Positions 6,697-24,560 of a DNA stretch of 36,657 bases are shown here, one piece after another. Source of the DNA: Bordetella parapertussis (GTDB lineage Bacteria; Pseudomonadota; Gammaproteobacteria; Burkholderiales; CAIKXV01); assembly GCA_945877995.1 (NCBI GenBank), contig CAMDXD010000001.1:1-36657 (forward strand), in the 5' to 3' direction. Position numbers and translations under genes: made by a program. Positions within the stretch are counted from its first letter, which is position 1, and every line of letters begins with the position of its first letter. The notes below the pieces were generated by a model. The model did no database searches. It saw only the letters and a program-made list of their open reading frames with translations, and was not told the origin of the DNA.

Positions 6697-6708
6697 GGCT
6701 TGCGACAC

Positions 6709-6724
6709 CGCAAGGTCCGTGCCA
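6709..6724 (-). promoter_or_regulatory. Sigma-54 (-24/-12) promoter
   Basis: The minus strand reads TGGCAC GGACC TTGCG, an exact TGGCAC-N5-TTGC match. It lies in the divergent region next to a sigma-54 activator gene, directly upstream of the operon's first gene. Confidence 0.7.
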
Positions 6725-6771
6725 CCGGTGCCGCCGCGAGCTTCGTCCTAGGGACGGCTTGCGAACCGTGG

Positions 6772-6816
6772 CGTGTCCGTGTTCTCATGGAGGACACGGT
6801 GACACACAATGTCCTC
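6772..6816. promoter_or_regulatory. Candidate enhancer (UAS) inverted repeats for the sigma-54 activator
   Basis: CGTGTCC (6772-6778) pairs with GGACACG (6792-6798), and GAGGACA (6790-6796) pairs with TGTCCTC (6810-6816). That gives three TGTCC/GGACA half-sites about 50-100 bp upstream of the -24 element. Confidence 0.35.
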
Positions 6817-6849
6817 AATAAAGACGCAGGCACCGGGCAGGAGGAAAGG

Positions 6850-8442
6850 ATGTCTCTTCGGCAGTCTGGCATCGGCGTGCTGGTCACGGATCGACAGGGT
6901 CTGGTCCTGCATGTGAGCGATCTCATGGAGAACCCGCGGGTGCGCGAGGCTGCGCTTGCGTGGCAGCCCTCGCAGCCCGCAGACATGAACGTGGTCGAAG
7001 TGGACGGCCAGCGGCTGATCCTCATGTACCGCGCCGGCCACGACACGTCGGTGCGCTTCGCCCACCAGGCAGGGGCCGAAGACGCGCTGTTCGACTTCGT
7101 TGCCAGTGTCGACTTCGCCTATGCGATTTTCGAGCATCTGTTGAGCAGCCCGTATGAAGCGATGACCGTGGTGGACGAGCGCGGCTGCGTTCGCTACATC
7201 AGCCCCGTCCATGCGCGCTTCTTCGGGCTTGCGCCCGGCGAAGGCTTCGGGCGCCACGTGACCGAAATCATCGAGAACACACGGCTTCATGAAGTGGTGC
7301 GCTCCGGAAAGGCCGAGATCGGCCAGGTACAGAACATGCGTGGCGTGGCGCGGGTCGTCAGCCGCATTCCGATCGTCTCCGGGTCGAAGACGGTGGGCGC
7401 GATCGGTCAGGTGATGTTCAAGGCGCCCGAGGCCGTGCATGACCTCTCGCGCGAGGTGACGCGGCTTCGCTCCGAGGTCGCGTACTACCGCCGGGAACTG
7501 TCCGACATGAGGCTGCGCGGCAGCATGGTCGACCAGATCGTGGGCACCAGCAGCGCCGTGCGCAAGCTGAAGGCGGATATCGAGCGCGTGGCACCACTGG
7601 ATGTCCCGGTCCTGCTGATCGGGGAGAGCGGCACGGGCAAGGAACTCGCGGCCTGCGCGATCCACGCGCTGAGCACGCGCCACGGCAAGCCGATGGTGTC
7701 GGTCAACGCAGCGGCGTTGCCCTCGGGGCTGGTCGAGAGCGAGCTGTTCGGGTACGAACCGGGCGCGTTCTCGGGGGCCGACCGCAAGGGTCGCCACGGC
7801 CGCTTCGAGATGGCGAACCGCTCGACGCTGTTCCTTGACGAGATCGGCGACATGCCGATCGAGGTGCAGGTCAAGCTGCTGCGGGTGCTGCAGGACGGGC
7901 AGTTCGAACGCGTCGGCGGATCGACCAGCACCCAGTCGAACTTCAGGCTGATCAGTGCCACCCACTGCGACCTCGAACAACTGGTCGGCACCGGCCGTTT
8001 CCGGCTCGATCTGTTCTACCGGATCAGCACGGTCGTGCTGCGCCTGCCGCCACTGTGCGAGCGGCTGGAGGACATCCCGCTGCTCGCCGGGCATTTCCTC
8101 AAGGCCTTCGCGCAGCGCAATGAACGCGTGGCGAAAGACATTTCGCCCGAGGCCTGCGCCGTGCTTCGAACCTTGCCCTGGCCGGGCAACATCCGCCAGC
8201 TCCAGCATGATCTCGAGCAGGCGGCGATCTTCAGCGAGGGGAATGTCATCGGCGCCGACGACCTGCCGCGCCGCGCACCGATACACGCGGGAACCATGTC
8301 GCACGTGCGCGAGACCCTCGATGATGTCGAGTTGAAGATGATCGACGAAGCATTGCTCCGCTGCGACGGAAACAAGAAGCAGGCCGCCATTGAACTGGGC
8401 ATCTCGCGCTCGCATCTCTACAAACGGCTGGGCCGACGTTGA
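6850..8442 (+). CDS. Sigma-54-dependent transcriptional activator (PAS sensor, AAA+ domain, Fis-type HTH)
   Basis: ATG 6850 is preceded by AGGAGGAAAGG. The track ORF from 5506 is an antisense over-extension. PAS-like region, Walker A GESGTGKE, GAFSGA loop, Walker B LFLDEIG, C-terminal HTH NKKQAAIELGISRSHLYKRL. Confidence 0.9.
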   Translation: MSLRQSGIGVLVTDRQGLVLHVSDLMENPRVREAALAWQPSQPADMNVVEVDGQRLILMYRAGHDTSVRFAHQAGAEDALFDFVASVDFAYAIFEHLLSSPYEAMTVVDERGCVRYISPVHARFFGLAPGEGFGRHVTEIIENTRLHEVVRSGKAEIGQVQNMRGVARVVSRIPIVSGSKTVGAIGQVMFKAPEAVHDLSREVTRLRSEVAYYRRELSDMRLRGSMVDQIVGTSSAVRKLKADIERVAPLDVPVLLIGESGTGKELAACAIHALSTRHGKPMVSVNAAALPSGLVESELFGYEPGAFSGADRKGRHGRFEMANRSTLFLDEIGDMPIEVQVKLLRVLQDGQFERVGGSTSTQSNFRLISATHCDLEQLVGTGRFRLDLFYRISTVVLRLPPLCERLEDIPLLAGHFLKAFAQRNERVAKDISPEACAVLRTLPWPGNIRQLQHDLEQAAIFSEGNVIGADDLPRRAPIHAGTMSHVRETLDDVELKMIDEALLRCDGNKKQAAIELGISRSHLYKRLGRR

Positions 8443-8455
8443 AGGCCGCGGGACG

Positions 8456-10516
8456 ATGATCGAGCGCACCGATGGCCCGTTGACCGGCCTGGTGGTCGTG
8501 GAACGCGCCGGCAGGCTGTCGGTCAGTGCCTGCGGCTTCCTGCTTGCCAGCCTGGGGGCCCGGGTGATGCGGGTCGAGCAGGCTGCCGACGCGGCTGCGG
8601 TCGCATCGGCGTCGCCCGCCCTCGAGCGACTGTTGATCGGGGGCAAGACCCGGGTCGAGGCCAGCGGGTTCCGCTGGTCGGAGGCGCTTTCGATCGCACG
8701 CGTCGTCCTGCTCTCGGCCGAAGATTCGGATCCCCTGCCGGGCATGCTGCGCGCAACCATCGACCGCCTGAATGATCCAGCCGCCCCGCCGTCGGCCACC
8801 GGCGGCCACGCCCCCGCTTCGGTCGTCTGCTGTATTTCCGCACAAGGTCTGGGGCACCCGGACCTTCCCGAATCGGCCACCGACGCCCTGGTGCAAGCTC
8901 TGGGGGGGCTGATGGCGGTGACCGGCAAACCCGAGGGCGCGCCGGAGTTTGCACGCGTGCCGATCGGAGAACTGAGCGCAGCGGTGATCGCCAGCATCTC
9001 GGTCGTGGCGTCGCTGCTTTCACCGCAGTCGCAGATGATCGACCTGAGCCTGGTCGAGATCGTTGCCGACCAGCTCAGGTCGCATGTATCGCTGCTGCAG
9101 AACGGGCAAGCCAGCGGGTTCCGCTCCGGCTGTGGCCATCCACTGTGCTGCCCGTGGAATGCCTATCGCGCGCTCGATGGCTGGATACTGATCTGTTCGG
9201 CCACCGACGAGCACTGGACCGCGATCGTCGAGTCGATCGGCGAGGGCGCGCTCGCCCGCGATCCACGCTATGCGACGCGTTCGGCGCGCCTTGCGAACCG
9301 GGCTGACGTCGACCGCCTGCTGGAACACCGCACGCAGGGCCGTACCGTCGCGGATCTGCTCGAGACGCTCGGCGCTTCGGGAGTGCCGGTGGGGCCGGTC
9401 GTCCCGATAACGGAGGTTGCCTCGGACCCCGTGCTGCTGGTCAGCGGCAGTGTCGAGCGCTATCGCGCCGAGGCGGTGTCGCGGGTGCCCGTGCGCATCC
9501 GGCCAGCAGGCCTCGACCTGGCAAGGTCGCAGCAGTCCGAACCGGCCTTCGCCGGGCAGCCCGGCGCGCAACGGCATGCGCTCTCGGGTATCCGGGTGGT
9601 TGAGCTGACCGTGTATGCGGCCGGACCCCTGGCCGGGTTCGGGCTCGCCAGCCTCGGTGCAGACGTGACGAAGATCGAATCGCCGGATGGCGAAGCGTGC
9701 AGGCAGTGGCAACCCCAGTTCGACGGTGTGAGCGGCTATTTCGCCAACTACAATGCCGGCAAGCGCTCGCTCTGCCTTGACCTGCGCCACGAGCAGGACC
9801 GCCAGCGACTCTGGGCCCTCCTGGACCAGGCCGACGTGTTCCTGCACAACCTGCGGCCGGGCGCGGTCGAGCGGCTCGGATTCGGCATCGACCCGGTCGT
9901 GCGTCGAAACCCGCGCATCGTGTATTGCGCCATTTCGGGTTACGGCAGCGACGGTCCTTCCTTGCCGGCGCTCGATACCGTGATACAGGGCCATGGCGGG
10001 TTGGCGTCGGCGGTGGGCGACGGGTCGGTGCCGCTTCGCATCGGCTATTCGATCGCCGACCAGCTGACCGGGCACTTCGCGGCCACCGGCATCATCGCGG
10101 CATTGCACGCCGTCGCCCGCACCGGACACGCCCAGCATGTCGACATCGCGATGGCCGATGCCATCGCCTGGCTGACACACCTGGCCTGGGCCGACGCAGA
10201 CGCGTTGCCACCGACCCGCGTGGTGCGCACGAGCGACGGCTGGGTAGTGGCCGCCTCGGCAGACGTGCCCGCAGCGTCGCCCCTGACACGGGCTGCACTC
10301 GTGCAGGCGCTGACAGGGTCGGGCATCACGGCAGTGCCGGTGCTCGAAGCCGGCGAAGTACTCAGGCAGCCGGCACTGACCGCCCGCGGTTCGCTGCAGT
10401 CGGTGCAGGCGCCGCTCGGACATTGCATGATCGACGTATTCGCAGCCCCGTTCGGCATCCCGGTATCGGTACCGACCCGAATGGCCCGGCTCGGAGAAGA
10501 CAATCCAACCGCATGA
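8456..10516 (+). CDS. Tandem fusion of two family-III CoA-transferase domains in one 686-aa polypeptide
   Basis: Start at ATG 8456 (MIERTDGPLTGLVVVE). N-terminal half: LTGLVVVERAGRLSVSACGFLLASLGARVMRVE...ATDALVQALGG. C-terminal half: LSGIRVVELTVYAAGPLAGFGLASLGADVTKIE...ALDTVIQGHGG. Each half repeats the CaiB/BaiF N-terminal signature and the Asp-containing segment. Confidence 0.8.
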   Translation: MIERTDGPLTGLVVVERAGRLSVSACGFLLASLGARVMRVEQAADAAAVASASPALERLLIGGKTRVEASGFRWSEALSIARVVLLSAEDSDPLPGMLRATIDRLNDPAAPPSATGGHAPASVVCCISAQGLGHPDLPESATDALVQALGGLMAVTGKPEGAPEFARVPIGELSAAVIASISVVASLLSPQSQMIDLSLVEIVADQLRSHVSLLQNGQASGFRSGCGHPLCCPWNAYRALDGWILICSATDEHWTAIVESIGEGALARDPRYATRSARLANRADVDRLLEHRTQGRTVADLLETLGASGVPVGPVVPITEVASDPVLLVSGSVERYRAEAVSRVPVRIRPAGLDLARSQQSEPAFAGQPGAQRHALSGIRVVELTVYAAGPLAGFGLASLGADVTKIESPDGEACRQWQPQFDGVSGYFANYNAGKRSLCLDLRHEQDRQRLWALLDQADVFLHNLRPGAVERLGFGIDPVVRRNPRIVYCAISGYGSDGPSLPALDTVIQGHGGLASAVGDGSVPLRIGYSIADQLTGHFAATGIIAALHAVARTGHAQHVDIAMADAIAWLTHLAWADADALPPTRVVRTSDGWVVAASADVPAASPLTRAALVQALTGSGITAVPVLEAGEVLRQPALTARGSLQSVQAPLGHCMIDVFAAPFGIPVSVPTRMARLGEDNPTA

Positions 10517-10529
10517 AAGACCTGGAAAC

Positions 10530-11741
10530 ATGAACGGCAACCTTCCACTCTCCGGCGTGCGTATCGCCGACTTCAGCCGGCTGCTGCCGGGGCCCTTCGC
10601 CACGCAGATGCTGGGCGCACTGGGGGCAGACATCATCAAGGTCGAAGAGCCGGTCACGGGCGACCCCAGCCGCCATAGCTATCCGCGGTACCGCGAGAAC
10701 AGCGTCTATTTCCATGCGGTCAACACGAACAAGCGCAGCATCGAAATGGACCTGCGCAGCGACCAGGGCAAGGAACAGGCGCGCCGGCTGATCGGACACT
10801 GCGACGTCGTGGTCGAGTCGTTCCGGCCGGGGCTGATGCGCAAGCTGGGCCTCGACTACGCCAGCGCGAAGGCGATCAACCCGGGCATCATCTACTGCTC
10901 GATCAGCGGCTTCGGACAGACCGGGCCGCTGTCGCATGTCGCCGGCCATGACCTGGTGATCCAGGCGATGACCGGCCTGATGGGCTGCGCCCCCGACGGA
11001 TCGGCGCCGGTGCCGGGGCTGCAGGCGGCCGACTTCGCCGGCGGTCTCTACGCGGTGATCGGCATCCAGGCGGCGCTCGCCCGCCGCGCCAAGAGCGGCG
11101 AGGGCTGTGAAGTCGATCTGGCGATGTTCGAGACCCTGCTCGACCTGTGCCTCATTCCGCTCAGTTCGGCGTTTTCCAGGGCAGCCGGCGGGTCGGGCGA
11201 GCCGCGGATGGAAGCCTTCGGGGGCAATCCGAGGTACTCGACCTACCGGACGAAGGACGGGCGATACGCCGCAGTGACGCTGCTGGAAACGAAGATATGG
11301 AAGGAGTTCTGCACCGCCATCGGTCGCCTGGACCTCGTGCACGCAGACGAGGCGCCGGCCGATCGCCTGAGCACGCACGGCGAGCGCGGGCTTGCGTACC
11401 GCGCCGCACTGGCGCAGTACTGCGCCTCGTACACATGGGACGAGATCCTGTCGCACATGGAGCGCACCGGCATTGCGATCTGCCCGGTGTGCAGCCCGCA
11501 GGATGCGATGGACCTCGCGCATGTAAGCGCACGCGGATCGATCGACCACTTCGACCATCCACAGGAGGGACGGATACCGCACCTGGTCAGTCCGTTCGCC
11601 ACGGCAGGGCTCGCTCTGCGGCATCCGGTGCCCGCACCCTCGCTCGGACAGCACACCGCGCAGATCCTGCGCGAGCTGGGTTATGGCGAGAGCGAGATCG
11701 CCGCCTCGATCACGAAAGCGAAGAAGGAAGCGCATCAATGA
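10530..11741 (+). CDS. Family III (CaiB/BaiF) CoA-transferase
   Basis: 403 aa. LSGVRIADFSRLLPGPFATQMLGALGADIIKVE and GFGQTGPLSHVAGHDLVIQAMTG. Confidence 0.9.
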   Translation: MNGNLPLSGVRIADFSRLLPGPFATQMLGALGADIIKVEEPVTGDPSRHSYPRYRENSVYFHAVNTNKRSIEMDLRSDQGKEQARRLIGHCDVVVESFRPGLMRKLGLDYASAKAINPGIIYCSISGFGQTGPLSHVAGHDLVIQAMTGLMGCAPDGSAPVPGLQAADFAGGLYAVIGIQAALARRAKSGEGCEVDLAMFETLLDLCLIPLSSAFSRAAGGSGEPRMEAFGGNPRYSTYRTKDGRYAAVTLLETKIWKEFCTAIGRLDLVHADEAPADRLSTHGERGLAYRAALAQYCASYTWDEILSHMERTGIAICPVCSPQDAMDLAHVSARGSIDHFDHPQEGRIPHLVSPFATAGLALRHPVPAPSLGQHTAQILRELGYGESEIAASITKAKKEAHQ

Positions 11742-12532
11742 AGAACTCATCACACCCGGACGACCTGGTGCTCGTGCGCATGCAGGACCATGGCACAGCA
11801 GGTCGCATCGCCTTCGTCACGATCAACAACCCCACCAAGCGCAATGCGCTCGGCATGGCGGGCAAGCGCGCGATCGCGGAAGCGTTCCTGAGTTTGTCCC
11901 TCGACGAAGACCTGCGCGCCGTGGTCCTGACTGGCGCTGGCGAAAAATCCTTCATCGCCGGGGCAGACCTGGCGGAGATGAAGGACCTGACCGTCGACGA
12001 GGCGCGGGAAGAGCACACGCTTACCCACTATGCGTGCGACTCGATCCGGCGTTGCCCGGTGCCTGTCATCGCGCGCATCAACGGCTACTGCTTCGGTGCC
12101 GGAATGGAGCTCGCCGCCTCGTGCGACCTGCGGGCATCGTCCGAGCATGCGAAATTCGGCATGCCGGAGGTACGCGTGGGCCTGCCGTCCGGGATGGAAG
12201 CAGCGCTGCTGCCGGCGCTCCTGGGCTGGGGCAAGGCGGCCGAGCTCGTGCTGACCGGAGACATCTTCGAGGCGAAGGAAATGCACCAGTTCGGCTTCCT
12301 GCAGAAGCTGGTCCCTGCAGGGGAACTCGACGCGGCCATCGAGCAGTGGCTGCAGTCGATACTGGTGAGCGGACCGCGCGCCGTGCGATTGCAGAAATCG
12401 CTGCTGCGCGACTGGGAACGGATGTCCCTGTCCGACAGCATCCGCAGGGGCATCGAAATGTGTGTCGAGGCCCGTCGCACCGATGAGCCGTCCAGGCTGA
12501 TGGCCGCGTTCCTTGCACGCAAGAGAACCTGA
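11738..12532 (+). CDS. Enoyl-CoA hydratase/isomerase family protein
   Basis: ATG 11738 is in an ATGA overlap with the upstream stop. SFIAGADLAEM and NGYCFGAGMELAASCD. Confidence 0.9.
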   Translation: MKNSSHPDDLVLVRMQDHGTAGRIAFVTINNPTKRNALGMAGKRAIAEAFLSLSLDEDLRAVVLTGAGEKSFIAGADLAEMKDLTVDEAREEHTLTHYACDSIRRCPVPVIARINGYCFGAGMELAASCDLRASSEHAKFGMPEVRVGLPSGMEAALLPALLGWGKAAELVLTGDIFEAKEMHQFGFLQKLVPAGELDAAIEQWLQSILVSGPRAVRLQKSLLRDWERMSLSDSIRRGIEMCVEARRTDEPSRLMAAFLARKRT

Positions 12533-12587: not shown

Positions 12588-13568
12588 ATGAGCAAAGTGT
12601 CATCCGCCGCCACGGCGGGTCTGCTGGTCGTCGCAGGGCTGGTGGCCGACATCGCCAGCGCGCAGACGAGCTATCCGATGAAACCGGTCAGGCTCATCGT
12701 TCCTTTCCCACCGGGTGGAAGCACGGATATCGTCGGCCGCGTCGCTGCGCAGAGCCTCTCTGAACTCTGGGGGCAGCAGGTGACGGTGGACAACCGGGGC
12801 GGCGCAAGCGGCCAGATCGGGGTCGAGCTCGCGGCACAGGCGCCCCCGGACGGCCATACGCTGGTCATCGGACATATCGGTACGTTCGGCGTCAACCCGT
12901 CGCTGTTTCCCAAGCTCCGCTATGACGCCATCAGGGATTTCGCGCCCATTTCCCTGATCGCACGCGTGCCGAACATGCTCGCCGTACATCCCTCGCTGCC
13001 AGTGAAGACGGTCAAACAGTTGGTGGACATGGCCAGGCAGCGCCCGGGGACGCTCAACTACGGCTCCAGCGGCAGCGGCAGCAATCCGTTCCTGTGCGTT
13101 GAGTACTTCAAGATGCTCACGCGCACCGACATCGTCCATGTCGCCTACAAGGGCACCGGACCGATGCTGACCGACCTGATCGCCGGCCATATCTCGCTCA
13201 CCATCAACGGCGTGCCGCCCCTGCTTCCCCACGTCAAGTCGAAGCGGCTCAATGCCATCGCCGTGGCGAGCGACAAACGGCTCAGCCTGTTGCCCGACCT
13301 GCCGACGATCCGGGAATCGGGTGTCCCCGAATACGAGGTGACGCAGTGGTACGGCATGCTCGCGCCCGCCAGCACGCCGCGGGTGCTCGTGAACAGGATC
13401 AACGCGGACATCCAGGCCTTCCTCGCGCGGCCCGACACTTCTGCACGGATGTCGGGTGAAGGTGCGATCCCTTCGGGCAGCAGCCCCGAAGAGTTCGGCG
13501 CACTGATCCGCGCGGAAATCGAGCGCTGGGCCAAGGTCGTCAAGGCCACGGGCGCCAAGCCCGACTAG
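12588..13568 (+). CDS. Bug-family periplasmic substrate-binding protein
   Basis: ATG 12588 after GAGGAGG. Signal peptide then KPVRLIVPFPPGGSTDIVGR, and a C-terminal EFGALIRAEIERWAKVVKATGAKPD typical of the family. Confidence 0.9.
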   Translation: MSKVSSAATAGLLVVAGLVADIASAQTSYPMKPVRLIVPFPPGGSTDIVGRVAAQSLSELWGQQVTVDNRGGASGQIGVELAAQAPPDGHTLVIGHIGTFGVNPSLFPKLRYDAIRDFAPISLIARVPNMLAVHPSLPVKTVKQLVDMARQRPGTLNYGSSGSGSNPFLCVEYFKMLTRTDIVHVAYKGTGPMLTDLIAGHISLTINGVPPLLPHVKSKRLNAIAVASDKRLSLLPDLPTIRESGVPEYEVTQWYGMLAPASTPRVLVNRINADIQAFLARPDTSARMSGEGAIPSGSSPEEFGALIRAEIERWAKVVKATGAKPD

Positions 13569-13593
13569 TCCAACCCAACCGGAGATCAACTCG

Positions 13594-14457
13594 ATGATCG
13601 TCGATTCGCAGGTACACATCTGGGGGGCAGACACGCCCGAGCGACCGTGGCCCGTCCCGCCCGCGGGGCTGAAGGCGGTGCCTGTCCACAACAATGGCAT
13701 CCCGTTCACGCAGGAGCACGTGCTGGGTGAAATGGATGCGGCGGGGGTGGGTCGAGCGATCATCGTGCCGCCTTCGTGGGAGGGTGATCGCAACGACCTG
13801 GCCCTTGCAGCGGCAGCGGCGTATCCGGGCCGGTTCGCGGTGATGGGCCGGCTGGATATCCAGCGCAGCGACGCAAGGTCACAGATCCGGGACTGGCTCA
13901 AGCGGCCCGGCATGCTGGGCTTGCGCTTCGCACTGCACACGCCGCTGCTGGAGCGTCCGTTCGTGTCGGGAGAGCTTGACTGGGTGTGGCGTGAGGCGGA
14001 AGCGGCGGGCGTCCCGGTGATGATCCTGGTGCCCCACCGACTGATGCCGTCGGTAGCCCGGGTCGCCGAGCGACATCCCGGGCTGAAACTGGTGATGGAC
14101 CACCTCGGCCTGGTGCACGGCAAGGATGAAGAGGCCTTTGCCGACATGGGCAAGCTGCTCGAGCTTGCGAAGTATCCCAACGTCGCTGCAAAGGCGTCGA
14201 TCACGCCTTTCTTCACCACCGATGCCTATCCGTTCCGGAATCTGCACGAACCCCTGCGCCGCGTATTCGATGCGTTCGGGCCAAGGCGCATGTTCTGGGG
14301 CTCGGACCTGTCTCGGCTTCCCTGCCCGTACCGCCAGGGCGTGACGATGTTCACCGAAGCGCTACCCTGGCTGAGCGGAGAGGACCTGGACTGGGTCATG
14401 GGGCGTGGCGTGTGCGAATGGCTGGGCTGGCCAGCCGTATCGACAGGAGCACGGTAA
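13594..14457 (+). CDS. Amidohydrolase-2 (TIM-barrel metal-dependent hydrolase, lactonase/decarboxylase-like) family protein
   Basis: 287 aa. The N-terminal MIVDSQVHIW and the later VMDHLG and WGSDL segments resemble the PF04909-type family. Its stop TAA overlaps the next ATG (TAATG). Confidence 0.8.
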   Translation: MIVDSQVHIWGADTPERPWPVPPAGLKAVPVHNNGIPFTQEHVLGEMDAAGVGRAIIVPPSWEGDRNDLALAAAAAYPGRFAVMGRLDIQRSDARSQIRDWLKRPGMLGLRFALHTPLLERPFVSGELDWVWREAEAAGVPVMILVPHRLMPSVARVAERHPGLKLVMDHLGLVHGKDEEAFADMGKLLELAKYPNVAAKASITPFFTTDAYPFRNLHEPLRRVFDAFGPRRMFWGSDLSRLPCPYRQGVTMFTEALPWLSGEDLDWVMGRGVCEWLGWPAVSTGAR

Positions 14458-14999
14458 TGGAAGAGCGCGTTTTCCTGCTCAGTCCCGAGGCGCCGGCGCC
14501 CGATTCGGAAGTGACGGCACCGGCATCGACGCGCCTGCCATCGGAGGGCCTGAGGATCGGCTACCTCGACAACGGCAAGGGCAACGCAGACCACCTGCTG
14601 CGGTTCATCCGCGAATCGCTGCACGGTCGACTCGACGTTTCATCGAGCGTTTCGCGTCGCAAGCAGAGCGTAAGCCTCGCGGCAGGCAACGAGTTGATCG
14701 ACCAGTTCGCGCGGGAGGCCGATCTGGTGATCACCGCGATGGCGGATTGAGGATCGTGCACGTCGTGGAGTGTCCACGACATGTGTGAACTGGCCAAACG
14801 CGGTGTCCCCGGGGTCGTGGTCTGCAGCACACCCTTCGCGAAGCTGGCCGTGGCACAGGCCCGGATCTTCGGCGCACCCGATCTTCCGATGGTGGTCATC
14901 GAGCATCCGCTGGGCGGCCTGGCCGACGCGCAGATCCGCGAGCGCGCGCACCACGCAGTTGGGCAGGTCATGGACCTGATCGAGAGGATGCGGGCATGA
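14457..14999 (+). CDS. UxxC selenoprotein (U-G-S-C motif, Sec98 encoded by in-frame TGA 14748-14750), 180 aa, possibly GrdB/PrdB-like
   Basis: Track ORFs ending at 14750 and starting at 14781 share one frame. The only stop between them is TGA, and the 30 nt after it read GSCTSWSVHD in frame. The downstream piece has no RBS. A SECIS-like hairpin starts 5 nt after the UGA. ATG 14457 and the stop at 14999 both overlap neighbouring genes. Confidence 0.8.
14755..14787 (+). promoter_or_regulatory. Bacterial SECIS-like recoding hairpin
   Basis: Upper stem GUCGUGGA (14762-14769) pairs perfectly with UCCACGAC (14773-14780) around a GUG loop. Below a C61/A81 mismatch the lower stem is A60-U82, C59-G83, G58.U84, U57.G85, G56.U86, C55-G87. 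The apical loop sits 20-22 nt after the UGA. Confidence 0.7.
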
Positions 15000-16108
15000 G
15001 CACCAACCGCACGTTTTCGCGCGGAGCCCACGCAGGGATCGACACAGTCAATGACTACGTGGCCATCAACGACCTCTTCCACGAGCGGGGCTGGACGGAT
15101 GGTTTTCCAATCATCCCGCCGACGGAAAAGCTGGTCGGGCAGATGCTCGCCTATTGCGACAGGCCATGGGATCGCCCGGTAGCGAAGATCCCTCCGCGAT
15201 ATGGCGAAGCTACGCCGGTGCGGCTGGCCACGAACGCCGTGATGGCGGGCTGCCGGCCCGAGTACTTCCCGGTCGTCGTCGCGGCGATCGAGGCACTGTG
15301 CGAAGAGCCGTTCAACCTGTACGGCCTGCAGGCCACGACGCATCCCGTCTCGCCGTTCATCATCGTCAACGGGCCGATCGCGAAGGAACTCGGCATCAAC
15401 AGCGGCTGCGGCGCGCTGGGCTCGGGCTGCCGCAGCAATGCCACGATCGGCAGGGCCGTGCGCCTGTCGCTGGTCAACATCGGCGGCGCGCAACCCGGCA
15501 CGGGCGACATGGCGACGTTCGGCTCGCCGGCGAAGTACAGCTACCTGGCCGCGGAGAACGAGGCCGAGAGCCCGTGGGAGCCGCTCCATGTCGAACGCGG
15601 CTTCCCGCCGGAAGCCTCGACCGTCACGGTAATCGGAGCGGAGTGCCCCCACAACGTCAACGACCACCAGAGCATCACCGGTGCCGGCATCCTGCAGATG
15701 ATCGCAGGCACGATGGCGACGACCGGGAACAACGACGTCTACAATATCGAACCGCATCCTGCGGTCATCATCGGTCCGGAGCATGCGAGGACGATCGCCG
15801 CGGATGGCTATTCCAAGGCGGACGTCAAACGTTATCTGTTCGAGAATGCAACATTGCCGCTGCAACGCTTCTCGCGTGAAAACATCGAACGCCGTTTCCT
15901 GGTGACACACAAGGAGCGCTACGGCGATGCCGGTTCGGCCGTCCCCGTCCCGATGTTCCAGCGTGCGCAAGACCTGCTGGTCGTCGTGATCGGCGGCCCC
16001 GGGAAGCACTCGGCCACGGTGCCCACCTTCGGCGTGACCGTCCCGATCACACGTGCCATCCAGACGGTTGGCGGCGCCTTCGCCACTTCCGTGGAGCAGT
16101 TCAAATGA
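14996..16108 (+). CDS. Protein of unknown function (370 aa), translationally coupled partner of the selenoprotein
   Basis: ATG 14996 is in an ATGA overlap with the selenoprotein stop, and its own stop overlaps the next ATG (16105). I recognise no catalytic family. Notable segments: ERGWTDGFPIIPPT and the Gly/Cys-rich GINSGCGALGSGCRSN. Confidence 0.8.
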   Translation: MSTNRTFSRGAHAGIDTVNDYVAINDLFHERGWTDGFPIIPPTEKLVGQMLAYCDRPWDRPVAKIPPRYGEATPVRLATNAVMAGCRPEYFPVVVAAIEALCEEPFNLYGLQATTHPVSPFIIVNGPIAKELGINSGCGALGSGCRSNATIGRAVRLSLVNIGGAQPGTGDMATFGSPAKYSYLAAENEAESPWEPLHVERGFPPEASTVTVIGAECPHNVNDHQSITGAGILQMIAGTMATTGNNDVYNIEPHPAVIIGPEHARTIAADGYSKADVKRYLFENATLPLQRFSRENIERRFLVTHKERYGDAGSAVPVPMFQRAQDLLVVVIGGPGKHSATVPTFGVTVPITRAIQTVGGAFATSVEQFK

Positions 16109-17319
16109 CCAGCACGCGCAGCCCGCTGCAGGGGATCACCGTCCTCGACCTCGGGCAGATCTACAACGGCCCCTACGCAACCTTCCTGATGGGCATGGCA
16201 GGTGCCCGGGTGATCAAGATCGAGCCGCTCGAGGGCGAGTCGATGCGCCAGAGAACGCTGATCGGCGGCGCTGCGCTACCGTTCGCGATGCTGAATTCGA
16301 ACAAGCAGGCGGTGACGCTGAACCTGAAGACCGCGCGCGGGCGCGAGCTGCTGATCTCGATGGCCCGCCGCGCAGACGTCCTGCTGGAAAATTTCCTGCC
16401 GGGAAAGCTGGACAAGCTCGGCGTCGGCTATGACGTCCTGAGCGAGGCGAATCCCCGGCTCATCGTGGCATCAGGGTCGGGGTATGGCAGCACCGGGCCG
16501 TACCGAGACTACCCAGCGATGGACATCTCGATCCAGGCGATGTCCGGCGCGATGGCGGTGACCGGATTCCCCGACGGGCCGCCGACGAAGATCGGCCCTG
16601 CACTCTGCGATTTCTCCTGCGGTATCCATCTGTATGGTGCGGTCGTGACGGCGCTTTACGAGCGGGAGAAGACCGGGCGCGGGCAGAAGGTGGAAGTGGC
16701 GATGCTCGACGCCATCTATTTTTCCCTGGCATCGAGCCTGGGGCTCTACTTCGCCTCGGGAAATTACGGCGGGCCGGTCGACTTCCCGCAACGTACCGGT
16801 AACACCCATAGCGGAAAGGCCGCCGCGCCCTACAGCGTCTACCCGGCGAAGGATGGCTACATCGCCATCCTGTGCACCAACAACAAGCACTGGGTTTCCC
16901 TTACCAGGGTGATGGGCCGGGAGGAACTCGCAGCCGACCCCCGCTTCGACACGCCAAAGAAGCGGGCGAACCTGAGCCATGAAGTCGACGCCGTCGTGGG
17001 CGCCTACGCGGCACGCTTCCAGCGCGATGAACTGTTCGCCCTCCTGTCGCCGCACCACATCCCCTGTGCCCCGGTGCGGGACCTGGCCGAGGTCACCAAC
17101 GACCCGCACCTGCACCAGCGGGGCATGCTGGAATGGATGGACCATCCGAAGTACGGGCGGATCGCCGCCGCTCGCAGCCCGCTCCGGTTCGAGCACCAAC
17201 CGCCGCCCGAACTCAAGCCCAGCGCCGAGCTCGGGGAGCACAACAGCGAGGTGTATGAGGGATGGCTGGGGCTTTCGAAGGAAGAGGTCGCGGAACTGAA
17301 GCGTGACCGGGTGATCTGA
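16105..17319 (+). CDS. Family III (CaiB/BaiF) CoA-transferase
   Basis: 404 aa. LQGITVLDLGQIYNGPYATFLMGMAGARVIKIE and GYGSTGPYRDYPAMDISIQAMSG. Confidence 0.9.
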   Translation: MTSTRSPLQGITVLDLGQIYNGPYATFLMGMAGARVIKIEPLEGESMRQRTLIGGAALPFAMLNSNKQAVTLNLKTARGRELLISMARRADVLLENFLPGKLDKLGVGYDVLSEANPRLIVASGSGYGSTGPYRDYPAMDISIQAMSGAMAVTGFPDGPPTKIGPALCDFSCGIHLYGAVVTALYEREKTGRGQKVEVAMLDAIYFSLASSLGLYFASGNYGGPVDFPQRTGNTHSGKAAAPYSVYPAKDGYIAILCTNNKHWVSLTRVMGREELAADPRFDTPKKRANLSHEVDAVVGAYAARFQRDELFALLSPHHIPCAPVRDLAEVTNDPHLHQRGMLEWMDHPKYGRIAAARSPLRFEHQPPPELKPSAELGEHNSEVYEGWLGLSKEEVAELKRDRVI

Positions 17320-17422: not shown

Positions 17423-18424
17423 CTACTGCGGCCGTATCCCCGCCGCCTTCATCACCTTGCGCCACTTCGCCAGCTCGCTGCGCAGGTATTCGCCGAACTG
17501 CTCGGGCGTGCTGCCGACGACCTTGCCGCCAGCCGCCTCCAGCGCGGCGCGCAGGTCGGGCGCGTCGCGCAGCATCGCGACGATCTCGGCATTGAGCCGC
17601 TGCACGATCTCGCGCGGCGTGCCGCTGCGCACGACCACCGCATGCCAGGACTCTGCAGCGAAGCCCGGATAGCCCTGTTCCGCGACCGTGGGCACGTCGG
17701 GCAACGGCGCGAAGCGGCCGGGCGAGGACACCGCGAGCGCACGCAGCCGCCCGGCCTTCACCTGCTGCACCATGATGATCGGCGTGAGCATGCCCATCGA
17801 CACATGGCCGGCCATGATGTCGCTCGCTGCAGGGTTGTCACCCTTGTAGGGGACATGGGTGAGCTTCATGCCTGCGGCCAGGCTCAGGTACTCGGCCACC
17901 AGGTGGGTCGCGGTGCCCTGGCCGGTGGTGGCGTTGGTGAGTTCCAGCGGCTTCGACCGGGCGAGTCGCACCAACTCAGGCAGCGAACGCACCGGCAGCG
18001 AGGGGTTCGCCACCAGCACGAACGGAAAGGTCGCGACCAGGGTGACCGGCGCCACGTCCTGCAACGGATCGTAGACCGGCTTCTCCTGGCCAGCCGGGGT
18101 GGTGGCGAGCACGCCGGCGGCGCCGACGAACAGGGTGTAGCCGTCAGATGGCGCCTTGAGCAGCGCCTCGACGCCGATCATGCCAGCGGCACCGGGCCGG
18201 TTCTCGACCAGCACTGGCCGGCCGAGCGCATCACCGAGCCGCACGGCGATCATCCGGCCGGTCGTGTCGACCGCACCACCCGCAGCGAACGGAACGATCA
18301 TGCGCAAGGGCCTTGCCGGCCACCCCGCCGCAGGTCCCTCGGCTGCCAGCACGGCCGACGGCACAGCCGACGACAGACCTGCGCCGGCCAGCAGGCCGAT
18401 CGACAACAGCACGCTTCGCTTCAT
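17423..18424 (-). CDS. Bug-family periplasmic substrate-binding protein
   Basis: 333 aa. Signal peptide then RPLRMIVPFAAGGAVDTTGR, and a C-terminal EQFGEYLRSELAKWRKVMKAAGIRPQ. Confidence 0.9.
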   Translation of the reverse strand: MKRSVLLSIGLLAGAGLSSAVPSAVLAAEGPAAGWPARPLRMIVPFAAGGAVDTTGRMIAVRLGDALGRPVLVENRPGAAGMIGVEALLKAPSDGYTLFVGAAGVLATTPAGQEKPVYDPLQDVAPVTLVATFPFVLVANPSLPVRSLPELVRLARSKPLELTNATTGQGTATHLVAEYLSLAAGMKLTHVPYKGDNPAASDIMAGHVSMGMLTPIIMVQQVKAGRLRALAVSSPGRFAPLPDVPTVAEQGYPGFAAESWHAVVVRSGTPREIVQRLNAEIVAMLRDAPDLRAALEAAGGKVVGSTPEQFGEYLRSELAKWRKVMKAAGIRPQ

Positions 18425-20510: not shown

Positions 20511-20623
20511 TCAGCTGGGAACGAAAATTTGAGTACCTGTGACATTTTGCAATGTTTTCTGCCCGAATGTGTGGTGGGCTCAGATCAGCAGTTACGCAGG
20601 CTCACGCCAACGCCCTCGACATT

Positions 20624-20639
20624 TGGAATATGCTTTGCA
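20624..20639 (+). promoter_or_regulatory. Weak sigma-54-like -24/-12 element upstream of the nitrile-hydratase-family operon
   Basis: TGGAAT ATGCT TTGCA has GG and TTGCA at the consensus spacing. The predicted start near 20650 would leave GGGAGAGG as the RBS before ATG 20664. It is an imperfect match in an AT-rich stretch. Confidence 0.3.
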
Positions 20640-20663
20640 GCAGAACGTATGGGAGAGGCGGCA

Positions 20664-21023
20664 ATGAGCGAAGCAGCAGAGAAGCGCCTGGCGGCCGACA
20701 TCGGCGGCGACCCGGCCGGCCCGGTGGACACCGCCGATCACGGCATGAAGTTCTGGGAAAAGCAGGCGAACGCGATGCGTTCGACGCTGGGCCGCAAGGG
20801 CATCACGCGCACCGACGAACTGCGCCGCGCGGCGGAAGAGCTTGGCGAGCGCTACGCCGGGCTGGCCTACTTCGAGCGTACGACCAGCGCACTGCGCACC
20901 ATCCTCATCGAGAAGGGCCTCATCACCGAGGACGAACTCGTGGCGAAGATGGCCGAAGTGCGGGCGCGCTTCGACGTACCAGGCGGTACGCAGCCCTCGC
21001 CTGCGCAGCGGAGCGGCCAATGA
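20664..21023 (+). CDS. Nitrile hydratase family beta subunit, N-terminal-half-like subunit
   Basis: 119 aa. The helical segment ERYAGLAYFERTTSALRTILIEKGLITEDEL resembles the NHase beta N-domain. An alternative ATG exists at 20649. Confidence 0.65.
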   Translation: MSEAAEKRLAADIGGDPAGPVDTADHGMKFWEKQANAMRSTLGRKGITRTDELRRAAEELGERYAGLAYFERTTSALRTILIEKGLITEDELVAKMAEVRARFDVPGGTQPSPAQRSGQ

Positions 21024-21358
21024 ACACGACCTCCGCGGCCTCCGACACGGGGGTGTCGGCCTACACGCCCGCGCCCGGGCATCTCTACAACGTAGGCGAC
21101 CGGGTGCGGATCCGGCGCAACTATCCGCCCGGCCATCGCCGCACGCCCAACTACATCAAGGGCAAGACCGGCGTCATCGAGCGCATCTGCGGTGCCTTCC
21201 CCAACCCCGAAGAACTCGCCTACGGGTTCGCGGGCGAGCCGAAGAAGGTCCTCTACCGTGTGCGCTTCATGCAGAACACCGTGTGGCCCGACTACCAGGG
21301 GCCCGCACGCGATCTCATCGAGATGGAAGTCTTCGAGCACTGGCTCGAGCCGGCCTGA
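21020..21358 (+). CDS. Nitrile hydratase family beta subunit, C-terminal (SH3-like) half subunit
   Basis: ATGA overlap with the preceding gene. GDRVRIRRNYPPGHRRTPNYIKGKTGVIERI...YRVRF...LIEMEVFEHWLE matches the NHase beta C-terminal pattern. Confidence 0.75.
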   Translation: MNTTSAASDTGVSAYTPAPGHLYNVGDRVRIRRNYPPGHRRTPNYIKGKTGVIERICGAFPNPEELAYGFAGEPKKVLYRVRFMQNTVWPDYQGPARDLIEMEVFEHWLEPA

Positions 21359-21394: not shown

Positions 21395-22099
21395 ATGCAC
21401 GATCATCCGTTCGACCACTACGCCAACCGTCGTCCGGGTCATGGCCATGGCCACGACCACGACCACGATGCGCACCATCCAATCGAAGAGCGCGACGACG
21501 GCCCTCCCTCGGAATACGAGATCATGAGCCGCGCCATGCAGGAATTGCTCGAGGCGAAGGGCCTCATCACCGCCGATGAAGTGCGCGAGCGCATGGAGGT
21601 GTTCGACGAAGCGTTTCCGTACCGGGGCGCGATGGTGGTGGCGCATGCATGGACCGATCCGGCGTTCAAGCAGCGCCTGCTCGCCGACGGCAAGGCTGCC
21701 ATCTCGGAACTGGGCATCGGCATGGAGGCCGAGCGCCTGATCGCGGTCGAGAACACCCTCGAGGTGCACAACGTCATCGTGTGCACGCTGTGTTCATGCT
21801 ATCCGCGAACCCTGCTCGGCATGCCGCCGACCTGGTACAAGAGCGACAACTACCGCGCACGGGTCGTCTATGAGCCGCGCGCAGTCCTGAAAGAATTTGG
21901 CACTGAACTGCCCGACGACGTGACCATGCGCGTCCACGATTCGAACGCCGACATGCGCTACATCGTAGTCCCCATGCGCCCGGCCGGCACCGAAGGCTGG
22001 AGCGAGGAGAAGCTAGCCGAGATGTTGACCCGGGACACGCTGGTGGGCGTGACCGTGCCGCGCGTTCGGAAGGATTTGCCTGGCAGCCCTGCTGCTTGA
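21395..22099 (+). CDS. Nitrile hydratase family alpha-type (metal-binding) subunit, cobalt-type, with a His-rich N-terminal extension
   Basis: Claw-setting motif VCTLCSCYP followed by GMPPTWYKSDNYRARVV. The N-terminus MHDHPFDHYANRRPGHGHGHDHDHDAHH is His/Asp-rich. Confidence 0.9.
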   Translation: MHDHPFDHYANRRPGHGHGHDHDHDAHHPIEERDDGPPSEYEIMSRAMQELLEAKGLITADEVRERMEVFDEAFPYRGAMVVAHAWTDPAFKQRLLADGKAAISELGIGMEAERLIAVENTLEVHNVIVCTLCSCYPRTLLGMPPTWYKSDNYRARVVYEPRAVLKEFGTELPDDVTMRVHDSNADMRYIVVPMRPAGTEGWSEEKLAEMLTRDTLVGVTVPRVRKDLPGSPAA

Positions 22100-22133: not shown

Positions 22134-23129
22134 CTAGTCCGGCTTGATGCCCACGGCTTTCACGATATTCGCGAACTTCTCCTGTTCCGCCAGAACGTAG
22201 GCGCGGGTGCGCTCGGGCGTCATCACCATCGCCTCAGCGGTGAGCTGGGCCATCCGCTCCTTTACTTCCGGGCGAGCCAGCGCCTTGTTGATCTCTTCGT
22301 TCAGGCGGGTGACCACCGCCGCGGGCGTGCCGGCCGGTGCAAACAGGGTATGGAACTCCTGTACGTCGTAGCCCTTCAATCCCTGTTCGTCCAGCGTGGG
22401 CACCGACGGAAGGTAGGGAGAACGAGTCAGTCCGGTCACACCCAGGACCCGCAGCTTGCCTGCCTGGATGTAGGGCAACGAAGTGAGCAGGTTGACGACG
22501 TTTATCTGCAGCTCGTTGGCCATCTGGGCGGTGACCGCGATGGAACCCGTCTTGAACGGCACATGCACGATATCGATGCCTGCAAGGCTCTTGAACAGCT
22601 CCCCTGCAAGGTGCGTTATGCCGCCGGTGCCGCCTGAGCCGAACAGGAGTTTGCCCGGCTGCGCCTTGGCAAGCGCGACCAGCTCCGCAACCGTGTTCGC
22701 TGGCACGGCGGTGCCGACCAACAGCGTATTGGTGATCGTGGCAATCGCTGCGACGGGCACCATCGTACGCAGGTCATACGGAACGTTGAGGTAGACGCTG
22801 GGCGCGATGACCTGGCTGTTGCCTACGGTCACGAGCGTATAGCCATCGGGCGCGGCTTTCACTGCAGCTGCCATCCCGATGCGTCCTGCCGCACCCAGAC
22901 GGTTGTCGACGATGACCGGCTGCCCCATCTGTTCGCCGATCTTCTGGCCGATCAGGCGCGCAAGGACGTCGTACGAGCCGCCTGGGCCATACGGCACGAT
23001 GATCGTGAGGCGCCGAGCTGGAAAGCTTTCGGCGGCGAAGACGACAGGCGACAGGAAAGCCGCTGAAAGCGGCATGAAAGCCAGGCATCGGCGTACTGCG
23101 GCGCTCAGTCGTGCATGTCTGTTGCTCAT
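22134..23129 (-). CDS. Bug-family periplasmic substrate-binding protein
   Basis: 331 aa. Signal peptide then RRLTIIVPYGPGGSYDVLAR, and a C-terminal EKFANIVKAVGIKPD. Confidence 0.9.
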   Translation of the reverse strand: MSNRHARLSAAVRRCLAFMPLSAAFLSPVVFAAESFPARRLTIIVPYGPGGSYDVLARLIGQKIGEQMGQPVIVDNRLGAAGRIGMAAAVKAAPDGYTLVTVGNSQVIAPSVYLNVPYDLRTMVPVAAIATITNTLLVGTAVPANTVAELVALAKAQPGKLLFGSGGTGGITHLAGELFKSLAGIDIVHVPFKTGSIAVTAQMANELQINVVNLLTSLPYIQAGKLRVLGVTGLTRSPYLPSVPTLDEQGLKGYDVQEFHTLFAPAGTPAAVVTRLNEEINKALARPEVKERMAQLTAEAMVMTPERTRAYVLAEQEKFANIVKAVGIKPD

Positions 23130-23171: not shown

Positions 23172-24560
23172 TCAGTCGACGGACGCCAGCGCTTCGATCT
23201 GGACATGCGCGCCGGCCACAGGGCCCGGGCCTTGTATGCACACGAACTCGATGGCTGGCGCGCAGTGCGCCTGGAGGAACGCCTCCCGGATCTCTTCATG
23301 GATCCAGATGTCACCCGAGTTGCGAACATAGACCGTGGTCTTCGTGAGCTGCTCGAGTGCCACGTTGGCATTCACGCAGATGCGTTGGAGCAATCGCCAT
23401 GCAGCCCAGCACTGGGCCGCGAAACCGCGACTGTTCTCGTAACGCGCAAGGTCGCCCACGGCGCGGCGACCTGTCTCGTCATCCAGGCCGTCGACCGAGT
23501 CGACCAGTCGTCCGGCCTCGTTCAGCCCAAGCACGCCAGCGAAGAAACAGAGCGGTCCTGCACGCATGGCCGCCGGACCCGCGAATGGCTGGCGCACAGG
23601 CCAGGCGACAGGGTGAACGTCGAATCCAACCGCACGCCTGGCAGCGGTCAGTTCGATCTCGAGCAATGTTCCGCGGTGCCCGACCTCGTTGAACCCGGTG
23701 ACAGACAAGGCAGGCGACGTGTCGGGATAGAAGTGCTTGTGGACGCGGTGGAACGTTCCGTAGTCACGTAGGTCCTGCAGGAACACGCTCATGTGCAGCA
23801 CGTCGGACAGGGCTAGTCCCTGGGCCGTCAGGTTCTCGAGGATCTGCGAATAGACATACCAGGCCTGTGCGGCCATCGGACCTTCGCGGCTGTCGGGGTG
23901 GCTGCGTCCGGTTGCGAGGAATCGGCCCTCGACCGGCACGTCTTCGAATCCCCGCACGACCGGCTTGCCCGGCTCGCTGGTCTTGATCGGGATATGCCCG
24001 GCCAGGAACACCAGCGGGCCACACGCAACGCTCTGCGAATAGTAGGAAGCGGACGGCAGCGTCTGGTTGTCGTATGCGCGCACGGTGGAACGCTCCGAGA
24101 ACAGCGGATGCTCGCCGGGGACCACCGACAACGCGTCATAACCCAACCAGCGGGAGAAGCGACCCGTGACCTCGGCGACCCCGAGGCCGCTGCTCGGCGC
24201 CGGAACTGTCTCCCAGTGCTTTCGCATCCGCTCATGCACCGGGAAAAAACGCTTGTCGCGCTGCCAAGTGTGTCGACGCAGGATCTGGGTCATGTCGCTG
24301 CCGGCCGCGCGCAACACCTGGTCGAGGTTGGCATGCACCGACCAACTGTCGACGGCAACTTCGCGCTCGGTGCATTCAGCGATATCGAAAGTGTTCCAGT
24401 TTGCGCGCAACGATTCGGGCATCTGCTGGATGCCCTGGGCTGCGTCGCAAAAATCGCCCCGGACCCCGCTCAGGAAGACGATGCCGTTCGATACGATCGC
24501 AGCGGGATAGCCGCGCACGATGGGTGTAACGTTGGCGACAGTAATGCGACGGCGCGCCAT
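23172..24560 (-). CDS. Triple RidA/YjgF/L-PSP-domain fusion protein (462 aa)
   Basis: Three successive RidA-like modules, each opening with a buried strand-turn (AAIVSNGIVFLSGVRG, SVACGPLVFLAGHIP, AMRAGPLCFFAGVLG) and each about 130-160 aa long. Confidence 0.8.
   Translation of the reverse strand: MARRRITVANVTPIVRGYPAAIVSNGIVFLSGVRGDFCDAAQGIQQMPESLRANWNTFDIAECTEREVAVDSWSVHANLDQVLRAAGSDMTQILRRHTWQRDKRFFPVHERMRKHWETVPAPSSGLGVAEVTGRFSRWLGYDALSVVPGEHPLFSERSTVRAYDNQTLPSASYYSQSVACGPLVFLAGHIPIKTSEPGKPVVRGFEDVPVEGRFLATGRSHPDSREGPMAAQAWYVYSQILENLTAQGLALSDVLHMSVFLQDLRDYGTFHRVHKHFYPDTSPALSVTGFNEVGHRGTLLEIELTAARRAVGFDVHPVAWPVRQPFAGPAAMRAGPLCFFAGVLGLNEAGRLVDSVDGLDDETGRRAVGDLARYENSRGFAAQCWAAWRLLQRICVNANVALEQLTKTTVYVRNSGDIWIHEEIREAFLQAHCAPAIEFVCIQGPGPVAGAHVQIEALASVD

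Follow-up and report, generated by a model that had tools for sequence, protein, structure and literature searches.

A UGSC-family selenoprotein and an unnamed partner protein very probably form a single uncharacterised enzyme

What does a small selenoprotein do whose gene overlaps that of a larger protein belonging to no named family? The question is raised by a locus within 36,657 nucleotides of DNA (contig CAMDXD010000001.1 of assembly GCA_945877995.1, deposited as Bordetella parapertussis), a stretch hereafter called the window, in which a gene interrupted by one in-frame UGA codon precedes a gene encoding a 370-residue protein that I call the partner. A preliminary description, drawn from the nucleotide sequence, had proposed that the two genes specify a new selenoenzyme module related to GrdB and PrdB, the selenocysteine (Sec)-bearing subunits of glycine and D-proline reductases, and that the module, in an operon with a coenzyme A (CoA)-transferase gene, acts on a CoA-activated or imported acid. 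The selenoprotein turns out to be a member of UGSC, an abundant selenoprotein family, and comparison of its loci across genomes and metagenomes indicates that UGSC and the partner very probably constitute one uncharacterised enzyme. The interest of the locus lies in the still-unknown function of this abundant family and in its large unnamed companion, which has no solved structural relative. The features on which the argument rests are the following.

14457-14999, + strand: UGSC-family selenoprotein gene (180 aa; Sec at residue 98; AD-U-GSC, later HPLGG)
14748-14750, + strand: in-frame UGA selenocysteine codon (homologous codon TGA in 75/75 loci)
14762-14780, + strand: hairpin of the selenocysteine insertion sequence (SECIS), from predicted fold and covariation
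14996-16108, + strand: partner gene, unnamed family (370 aa; without Pfam, NCBIfam or PDB match)

UGA 14748-14750 is a selenocysteine codon

From the ATG at 14457 to the TGA at 14997-14999, frame +3 is open but for the single TGA at 14748-14750. Read-through yields a 180-residue product, ...VITAMAD-U-GSC-TSWSVHD...GVPGVVV...VIEHPLGG, which reproduces the Sec-region sequence of the preliminary description. At the homologous codon, every one of the 75 scorable loci has TGA, and cysteine (Cys; TGC or TGT) stands at the Sec column in actinobacterial, haloarchaeal and other Cys-form homologues, full-length proteins included. Eleven nucleotides past the UGA begins a hairpin, GUCGUGG-AGUGU-CCACGAC, with a 7-bp stem and an apical loop that holds a G-U. 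In alignment A4 (71 distinct sequences) its pairing is preserved in 99.6% of the cells, and compensatory double changes occur at four of the seven pairs, a result reached by 0 of 500 shuffles. The Cys-form genes served as a control for conservation of the SECIS element: in the actinobacterial ones the peptide CGSCTSWSVHD is identical and the hairpin cannot form, the synonymous codons being AGC, AGC and GTG as against TCG, AGT and GTC in the Sec form. No family matched the element in an Rfam scan. Conservation of the UGA codon is far beyond chance, and the gene is a genuine selenoprotein gene, as had been supposed.

On the source contig (k141_312431 of the ENA metagenome assembly ERZ27280294) the public gene calls cut this gene into pieces of 97 and 72 aa, each matching PF24696. 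Because such calls break the gene at the UGA, the UGSC family is systematically mis-annotated. Many Sec-form fusions of UGSC with the partner (see below) are stored in protein databases as 410-450-aa proteins that begin past the UGA. In the locus collection used here, L084:2462-3004 corresponds to window positions 14457-14999.

The selenoprotein belongs to the UGSC family

The product of 14457-14999 scores 144.3 bits against NF041046 ("UGSC family (seleno)protein", cut-off 125) and 163.1 bits against PF24696 (cut-off 25), and in a Pfam scan taken up to E=1 the UGSC family alone scores. The segment AMAD-U-GSC-TSWSVHD of this ~180-residue protein aligns with the invariant ADCGSCTSWSVHD of 29 homologues. 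In length, in the invariant AD-U/C-GSC-TSW and HPLGG motifs and in the SECIS element that accompanies the Sec form, the window protein resembles the family, from which nothing distinguishes it at the protein level. The selenoprotein is therefore not new, contrary to the initial proposal, and belongs to a catalogued family known since 2007-2008 and abundant in aquatic and soil bacteria.

In 2007 the family was introduced by Zhang and Gladyshev as "UGSC-containing protein", "a selenoprotein of unknown function" (PMC1976440). According to their Global Ocean Sampling survey (PMC2398784), UGSC is among the most abundant selenoprotein families, with 255 Sec against 21 Cys forms, and is commoner in non-marine than in marine samples; the survey proposed a "likely Trx-like fold" and already mentioned a "UGSC/Unknown_1" fusion. 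Its Unknown_1 is presumably the partner family described below. A 2026 review still places UGSC among the families whose biological functions are largely uncharacterised (PMC13188914), and in the searchable literature the pairing of UGSC with its partner appears solely as the "UGSC/Unknown_1" fusion.

UGSC and the partner are linked across phyla and domains

The association between the two genes was assessed in two samples: 80 GTDB loci picked via the partner, and metagenome loci picked independently via the SECIS/UGSC DNA pattern, 52 of which could be evaluated. In about 76 of the 80 GTDB loci UGSC adjoins the partner, lying immediately upstream of it except in two (L075 and L079), where the order is reversed; of the remaining loci two are cut at a contig end and one, L020, has no UGSC gene. 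In the window the UGSC stop and the partner start overlap in the tetranucleotide ATGA (14996-14999), and the same overlap is present in most GTDB loci when tblastn start offsets are allowed for. The partner was likewise found in 49 of the 52 metagenome loci, 24 of them being in-frame fusions of the two proteins, while the other three have no upstream sequence where the reversed order would place it. Fusions with an internal TGA were confirmed by translation. Cys-form fusions are also common, and one from Actinophytocola is annotated as "UGSC family (seleno)protein". The order partner-then-UGSC occurs among Cys forms of Actinobacteria, Roseovarius and Variovorax, and the pair is found on haloarchaeal plasmids too, the module having probably crossed the domain boundary by transfer. 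Occurrence in both orders, as a fusion, in Sec and Cys forms and in two domains of life points to one functional unit and is close to the strongest evidence that genomes can give. Judged by this gene association, UGSC and its partner of 350-370 residues are very probably one uncharacterised enzyme. Cultured carriers possess Cys forms (Roseovarius sp. THAF8, Variovorax sp. SRS16, Natrinema), so that Sec machinery is not needed for their study, and the function of UGSC is now experimentally approachable.

Two other arrangements were seen on plasmids. In Natrinema caseinilyticum (L088:4325-7736) a Cys-form UGSC gene and the partner gene are followed by overlapping genes for DUF6282 and NAD(P)-binding proteins and by a major facilitator superfamily transporter gene. 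The fusions L090:4314-6038 (Sporomusa termitida pSPTER) and L092:3323-5008 (Vibrio europaeus pVEu) have GD-M-G-T-S in place of GD-U-G-S-C, and both adjoin genes for aconitase X and a DUF126 small subunit; they may belong to a subfamily that is not redox-active and serves another purpose.

The partner is a large family without a name

As the preliminary description had noted, the partner cannot be assigned to a family. The window protein gave no Pfam match even at E<=10 and no NCBIfam match, 63 diverse members scanned singly revealed no recurrent weak family, and two profile searches against PDB sequences returned nothing. The family is nevertheless large, with at least 7995 relatives in 90% clusters and 5288 clusters at 50% identity, and its members are called "hypothetical protein" wherever they are named, including every plasmid match annotated in RefSeq. 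Paracoccus versutus is one of the carriers.

Residue conservation was scored over 376 partner domains. Cys86 (in NAVMAGC) is kept in 359 of them and is directly preceded by an invariant glycine, Gly85; D35, T115, N148, R153, E187 and W194 are conserved at >=95%, H263 at 91%, and H116, H219, D223, H224 and H338 at 75-84%. The Gly/Cys-rich loop NSGCGALGSGC, originally suggested as a redox counterpart of the selenocysteine or as a processing site, can be dismissed in both roles since its cysteines are not conserved, the consensus being NSGHNAFGPG. Several copies of the partner can also occur together: two to three partner paralogues stand in tandem behind one UGSC gene in L056, L060, L074, L077 and L078, and P0193, P0255 and P0256 exemplify proteins of about 700 aa that consist of two partner domains and lack UGSC.

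The Sec motif is predicted to lie in a flavodoxin-like domain

A natural Cys-form fusion of 541 aa, P0172, was modelled as a stand-in for the window pair. Confidence in the model, which forms one compact body, is high: the predicted local distance difference test (pLDDT) score is 90.0 and the predicted template-modelling score 0.91. Its UGSC part is a domain of alternating beta-strands and alpha-helices in which strand 87-91 precedes the C/U-G-S-C motif and helix 96-111 starts inside it. Its PDB neighbours are flavodoxin-like and comprise the flavodoxin domain of flavodiiron proteins, CpaE/CheY-like domains, the GH3 C-terminal domain, TIR and lumazine synthase; no thioredoxin-fold entry is among the 50 PDB matches listed. 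The three motifs invariant in UGSC, DNxKxNA, AD-U-GSC and HPLGG, each come after a predicted beta-strand and are therefore likely to lie at the edge where such folds usually have their active site.

The partner modelled alone reached a pLDDT of 80.5. Compared with the PDB by Foldseek, this model found its best match at E=0.97, with template-modelling (TM) scores <0.2 for all matches listed, and Foldseek of the fusion model was negative for the partner as well. The weak Foldseek matches to GAPDH-like C-domains, YjgF and SelD, at E near 1 and TM scores <0.2, were dismissed. Cys86 is predicted to lie between two helices, not in a beta-turn.

A distant homology between UGSC and the Sec region of GrdB

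The proposed likeness to GrdB and PrdB holds as remote homology, not as membership. The window protein matches TIGR01917 (GrdB) with E=3e-5 and 23.1 bits over profile positions 333-406, and TIGR01918 with E=0.004 and 16.3 bits; when 30 diverse UGSC members were scanned singly, 18 matched TIGR01917 at E<0.01. An hhalign comparison of the UGSC profile with a GrdB read from Global Ocean Sampling aligns Sec with Sec (ADCGSC over AACPVC); for this single sequence E is 0.12. At the level of sequence profiles, then, the Sec-bearing domain of UGSC is a genuine distant relative of GrdB.

The two systems share the succession of beta-strand, U-x-x-C and helix, followed by a G(I/V)P strand and then a loop of PLG type, and both have a second, larger subunit, in UGSC presumably the partner, and sometimes a trxB gene in the cluster. 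They differ in size, UGSC having 180 residues as against about 240 in PrdB and about 430 in GrdB. The comparison of the partner with GrdE and PrdA that the preliminary description had suggested was negative: the partner bears no similarity to the Gly_reductase or PrdA families even at E<=10 and is unrelated to these pyruvoyl proproteins. Rather than Stickland fermenters, the hosts are for the most part aerobic Proteobacteria, Actinobacteria, Chloroflexi and haloarchaea. No grdA, grdC, grdD or prd gene was found near the pair, whose neighbours in the window are CoA-transferases, hydratases and TctC proteins. On the three points that could have told against the preliminary description, the results were thus a detectable GrdB similarity, a conserved co-occurrence of the two genes and a partner outside every well-characterised family searched.

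Genes beside the pair

To look for a third conserved gene in the 80 genome loci, the first two genes to either side of the pair were clustered (272 proteins), and a Pfam census was taken of 135 immediate neighbours. The sole recurrent family was TctC (Bug), with 25 of the 135. Enrichment of TctC was rejected: the window has at least four TctC genes, and a rough estimate of about one per eight genes across the loci is near the frequency among the neighbours. Given this high background, adjacency to a Bug gene says little about function. Family III CoA-transferases occur in about 10 of the 80 genome loci and in 1 of 80 metagenome loci, a rarity that rules them out as a core part of the module and means that a CoA-activated substrate cannot be inferred for the module in general. 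The amidohydrolase was discarded as a core part as well, being present in less than 10% of the loci and in a handful of lineages far from one another (the window, L081, L082, and as DUF6282 in Natrinema and L060). Many betaproteobacterial loci have housekeeping genes on both sides of the pair, among them recN, NAD kinase, fur and bamE. The CoA-operon context, initially taken as a clue to the substrate, is thus limited to the window and a minority of loci.

A different association, the most telling of those that recur, is seen in four unrelated lineages, Roseovarius sp. THAF8, Variovorax sp. SRS16, an alphaproteobacterium (L078) and a member of the Acidimicrobiales (L068), where a second, dedicated trxB-like gene for a thioredoxin-disulfide reductase stands beside the pair and is a candidate source of the dedicated reductant:

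L093:5811-6791: trxB-like gene beside the pair
L091:1104-2051: trxB-like gene beside the pair
L078:8003-8998: trxB-like gene beside the pair
L068:8272-9270: trxB-like gene beside the pair

By chance, such an adjacency would be expected in far fewer than one case among about 94 loci, by estimate. In Roseovarius sp. THAF8 the Cys-form pair is WP_152498376/WP_152498375 and the adjacent TrxB is WP_152498374. Operons for glycine reductase (grd) contain trxB and trxA genes, which the linkage seen here parallels.

Proposed mechanism and alternatives

Three results turn UGSC into a testable two-component enzyme: its lock to the partner, whether fused or adjacent in either order, its GrdB-like Sec region, and the occasional TrxB. 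The explanation that I consider moderately probable is a selenol/thiol redox enzyme of two subunits, fused in other organisms, that is re-reduced by the thioredoxin system or by a TrxB-type flavoprotein. The product of 14457-14999 would be the small subunit, a flavodoxin-like alpha/beta domain and remote homologue of the Sec-bearing part of GrdB/PrdB. The product of 14996-16108 would be the large subunit, bound to the first in a physical complex and providing the catalytic or substrate-binding part with Cys86 and a set of acid/base or metal-binding residues. As modelled, Sec98 and Cys101 would be placed where a beta-strand ends and a helix begins, an arrangement classic for redox-active pairs. 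The selenol of Sec98 would attack or resolve an intermediate on the large subunit or on the substrate, whatever its nature; a Sec98-Cys101 selenenylsulfide would form, and the thioredoxin system or a dedicated TrxB-like flavoprotein, as putative reductant, would reduce it again; the reaction would presumably run in the reductive direction. In the window this module would have been drawn into a CoA-dependent operon for organic-acid catabolism, a context outside the conserved module. It may further be, and this is put forward tentatively, that the pair is a widespread two-subunit selenoenzyme that brings selenoprotein-B-like reductive chemistry to aerobic environmental bacteria, acts on a class of substrates new to selenium and has a catalytic subunit whose fold is without a solved relative.

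The proposed cycle has analogues among the two-Cys/Sec enzymes coupled to thioredoxin reductase, such as AhpC/AhpF, MsrA/B and ArsC, which likewise pair a nucleophilic Sec or Cys with a resolving Cys at the N-terminus of a helix and have a thioredoxin-reductase-like gene nearby in some genomes. They differ in that no relation to UGSC in sequence or fold was detected and in that the catalytic partner of UGSC has no PDB relative. Several observations weigh against a redox enzyme of this kind. The scores to the GrdB/PrdB families are far below the family cut-offs (23.1 against 602.2 bits and 16.3 against 65.45 bits), trxB adjoins the pair in just 4 of about 94 loci, and the survey of 272 clustered proteins and 135 neighbours yielded no third conserved gene that would hint at a substrate. 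Moreover, the fusions P0174 and P0184 and those of Sporomusa termitida and Vibrio europaeus are without both redox residues and keep Cys86 and the partner core, which implies that the partner can work without a redox-active UGSC domain.

The same fusions, with M-G-T-S or Cys-less UGSC domains and all partner core residues retained, are what would be expected if the partner were the enzyme proper, a non-redox and possibly metal-dependent isomerase, hydratase or lyase with Cys86 and a His/Asp/Glu set as catalytic residues, and if UGSC were a structural or redox-sensing regulatory module whose Sec-Cys pair switches the activity. The tandem partner paralogues, the double-partner fusions without a UGSC of their own and the several conserved His, Asp and Glu residues that could bind a metal fit such an arrangement, which I nonetheless regard as unlikely. 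Selenocysteine is costly and is usually retained for catalysis. The strong preference for it here (75 of 75 loci; 255 against 21 forms in PMC2398784) argues against a regulatory module. A dedicated trxB also suggests stoichiometric turnover over sensing. Alternatively, the pair might be a true selenoprotein-B-type reductase, the partner being an analogue of PrdA/GrdE that cleaves itself (for instance between Gly85 and Cys86) into a pyruvoyl enzyme, binds an amino-acid-like substrate as an imine and lets Sec98 cleave its C-N (or C-X) bond reductively. To the remote GrdB homology around the Sec and the trxB linkage as in grd operons this reading adds the invariant Gly85 before Cys86, reminiscent of the cleavage sites of PanD and PSD, which are Gly-Ser sites. 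It is improbable, given that the partner is unlike Gly_reductase and PrdA, that Cys86 is predicted outside a beta-turn, that homologues without Sec or Cys retain Cys86, and that grdA/C/D and prd genes are not nearby.

The literature default, a generic thioredoxin-like thiol-disulfide oxidoreductase of antioxidant defence beside an unrelated 370-residue neighbour, draws on the UxxC motif and on the "likely Trx-like fold" proposed in PMC2398784. I regard it as very improbable, since the structural matches of the model are to flavodoxin-like, CheY-like and GH3 C-terminal domains, with no thioredoxin fold among the 50 matches listed, and since adjacency and fusion across phyla and domains are incompatible with an unrelated neighbour. 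Finally, automatic annotation, which calls two genes, would make the TGA a genuine stop between two small unrelated open reading frames (ORFs) of 97 and 72 aa. That reading is effectively refuted: both halves match one Pfam model contiguously, the TGA is kept in 75 of 75 loci together with a covarying SECIS, and full-length Cys-containing homologues exist.

Gene neighbourhood of the pair in the window

In the window the pair belongs to a co-directional string that reads CoA-transferase, CoA-transferase, enoyl-CoA hydratase, TctC, amidohydrolase, UGSC, partner, CoA-transferase. Five members of the string besides the pair are as follows.

10530-11741, + strand: second family III CoA-transferase, upstream
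11747-12532, + strand: enoyl-CoA hydratase, upstream
12588-13568, + strand: TctC/Bug periplasmic solute-binding protein (PF03401, E=3.5e-58)
13594-14457, + strand: amidohydrolase (Amidohydro_2, PF04909, E=2.4e-27), a metal-dependent hydrolase, decarboxylase or lactonase; context window-specific
16105-17319, + strand: family III (CaiB/BaiF/Frc-like) CoA-transferase (PF02515, E=5e-112); context window-specific

The Bug and family III CoA-transferase labels of the preliminary description agree with these Pfam assignments. The translational couplings that it had pointed out were likewise all found: besides the ATGA between UGSC and partner, the amidohydrolase stop and the UGSC start share TAATG (14455-14459, a 1-nt overlap), and the partner stop and the CoA-transferase start share ATGA (16105-16108, a 4-nt overlap). 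Upstream of the string are genes for a sigma-54 activator, an acyl-CoA dehydrogenase and a short-chain dehydrogenase/reductase, and the region as a whole has the make-up typical of a catabolic island for organic acids in a betaproteobacterium rich in Bug genes. A scan for tRNA genes in the 36.7-kb window found none, and promoter and terminator scans gave nothing informative.

The region holds three family III CoA-transferase genes on the + strand (about 9300-10516, 10530-11741 and 16105-17319), all of whose products score below every NCBIfam equivalog cut-off. It also has two enoyl-CoA hydratase genes (about 4655-5400, - strand; 11747-12532, + strand), and the sigma-54 enhancer-binding activator occupies 5506-8442. 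Four TctC/Bug genes are spread over the 36.7 kb, at 12588-13568 (+), 17423-18424 (-), 22134-23129 (-) and 26905-27966 (-). About 3 kb downstream of the operon, on the + strand, are genes for the beta (20552-21358) and alpha (21395-22099) subunits of nitrile hydratase. A RidA/L-PSP domain (PF01042) is found in two unusually long ORFs, 23172-24560 (-) and 28197-29486 (-), of 462 and 429 aa; the DNA being GC-rich, their starts may have been set too far upstream.

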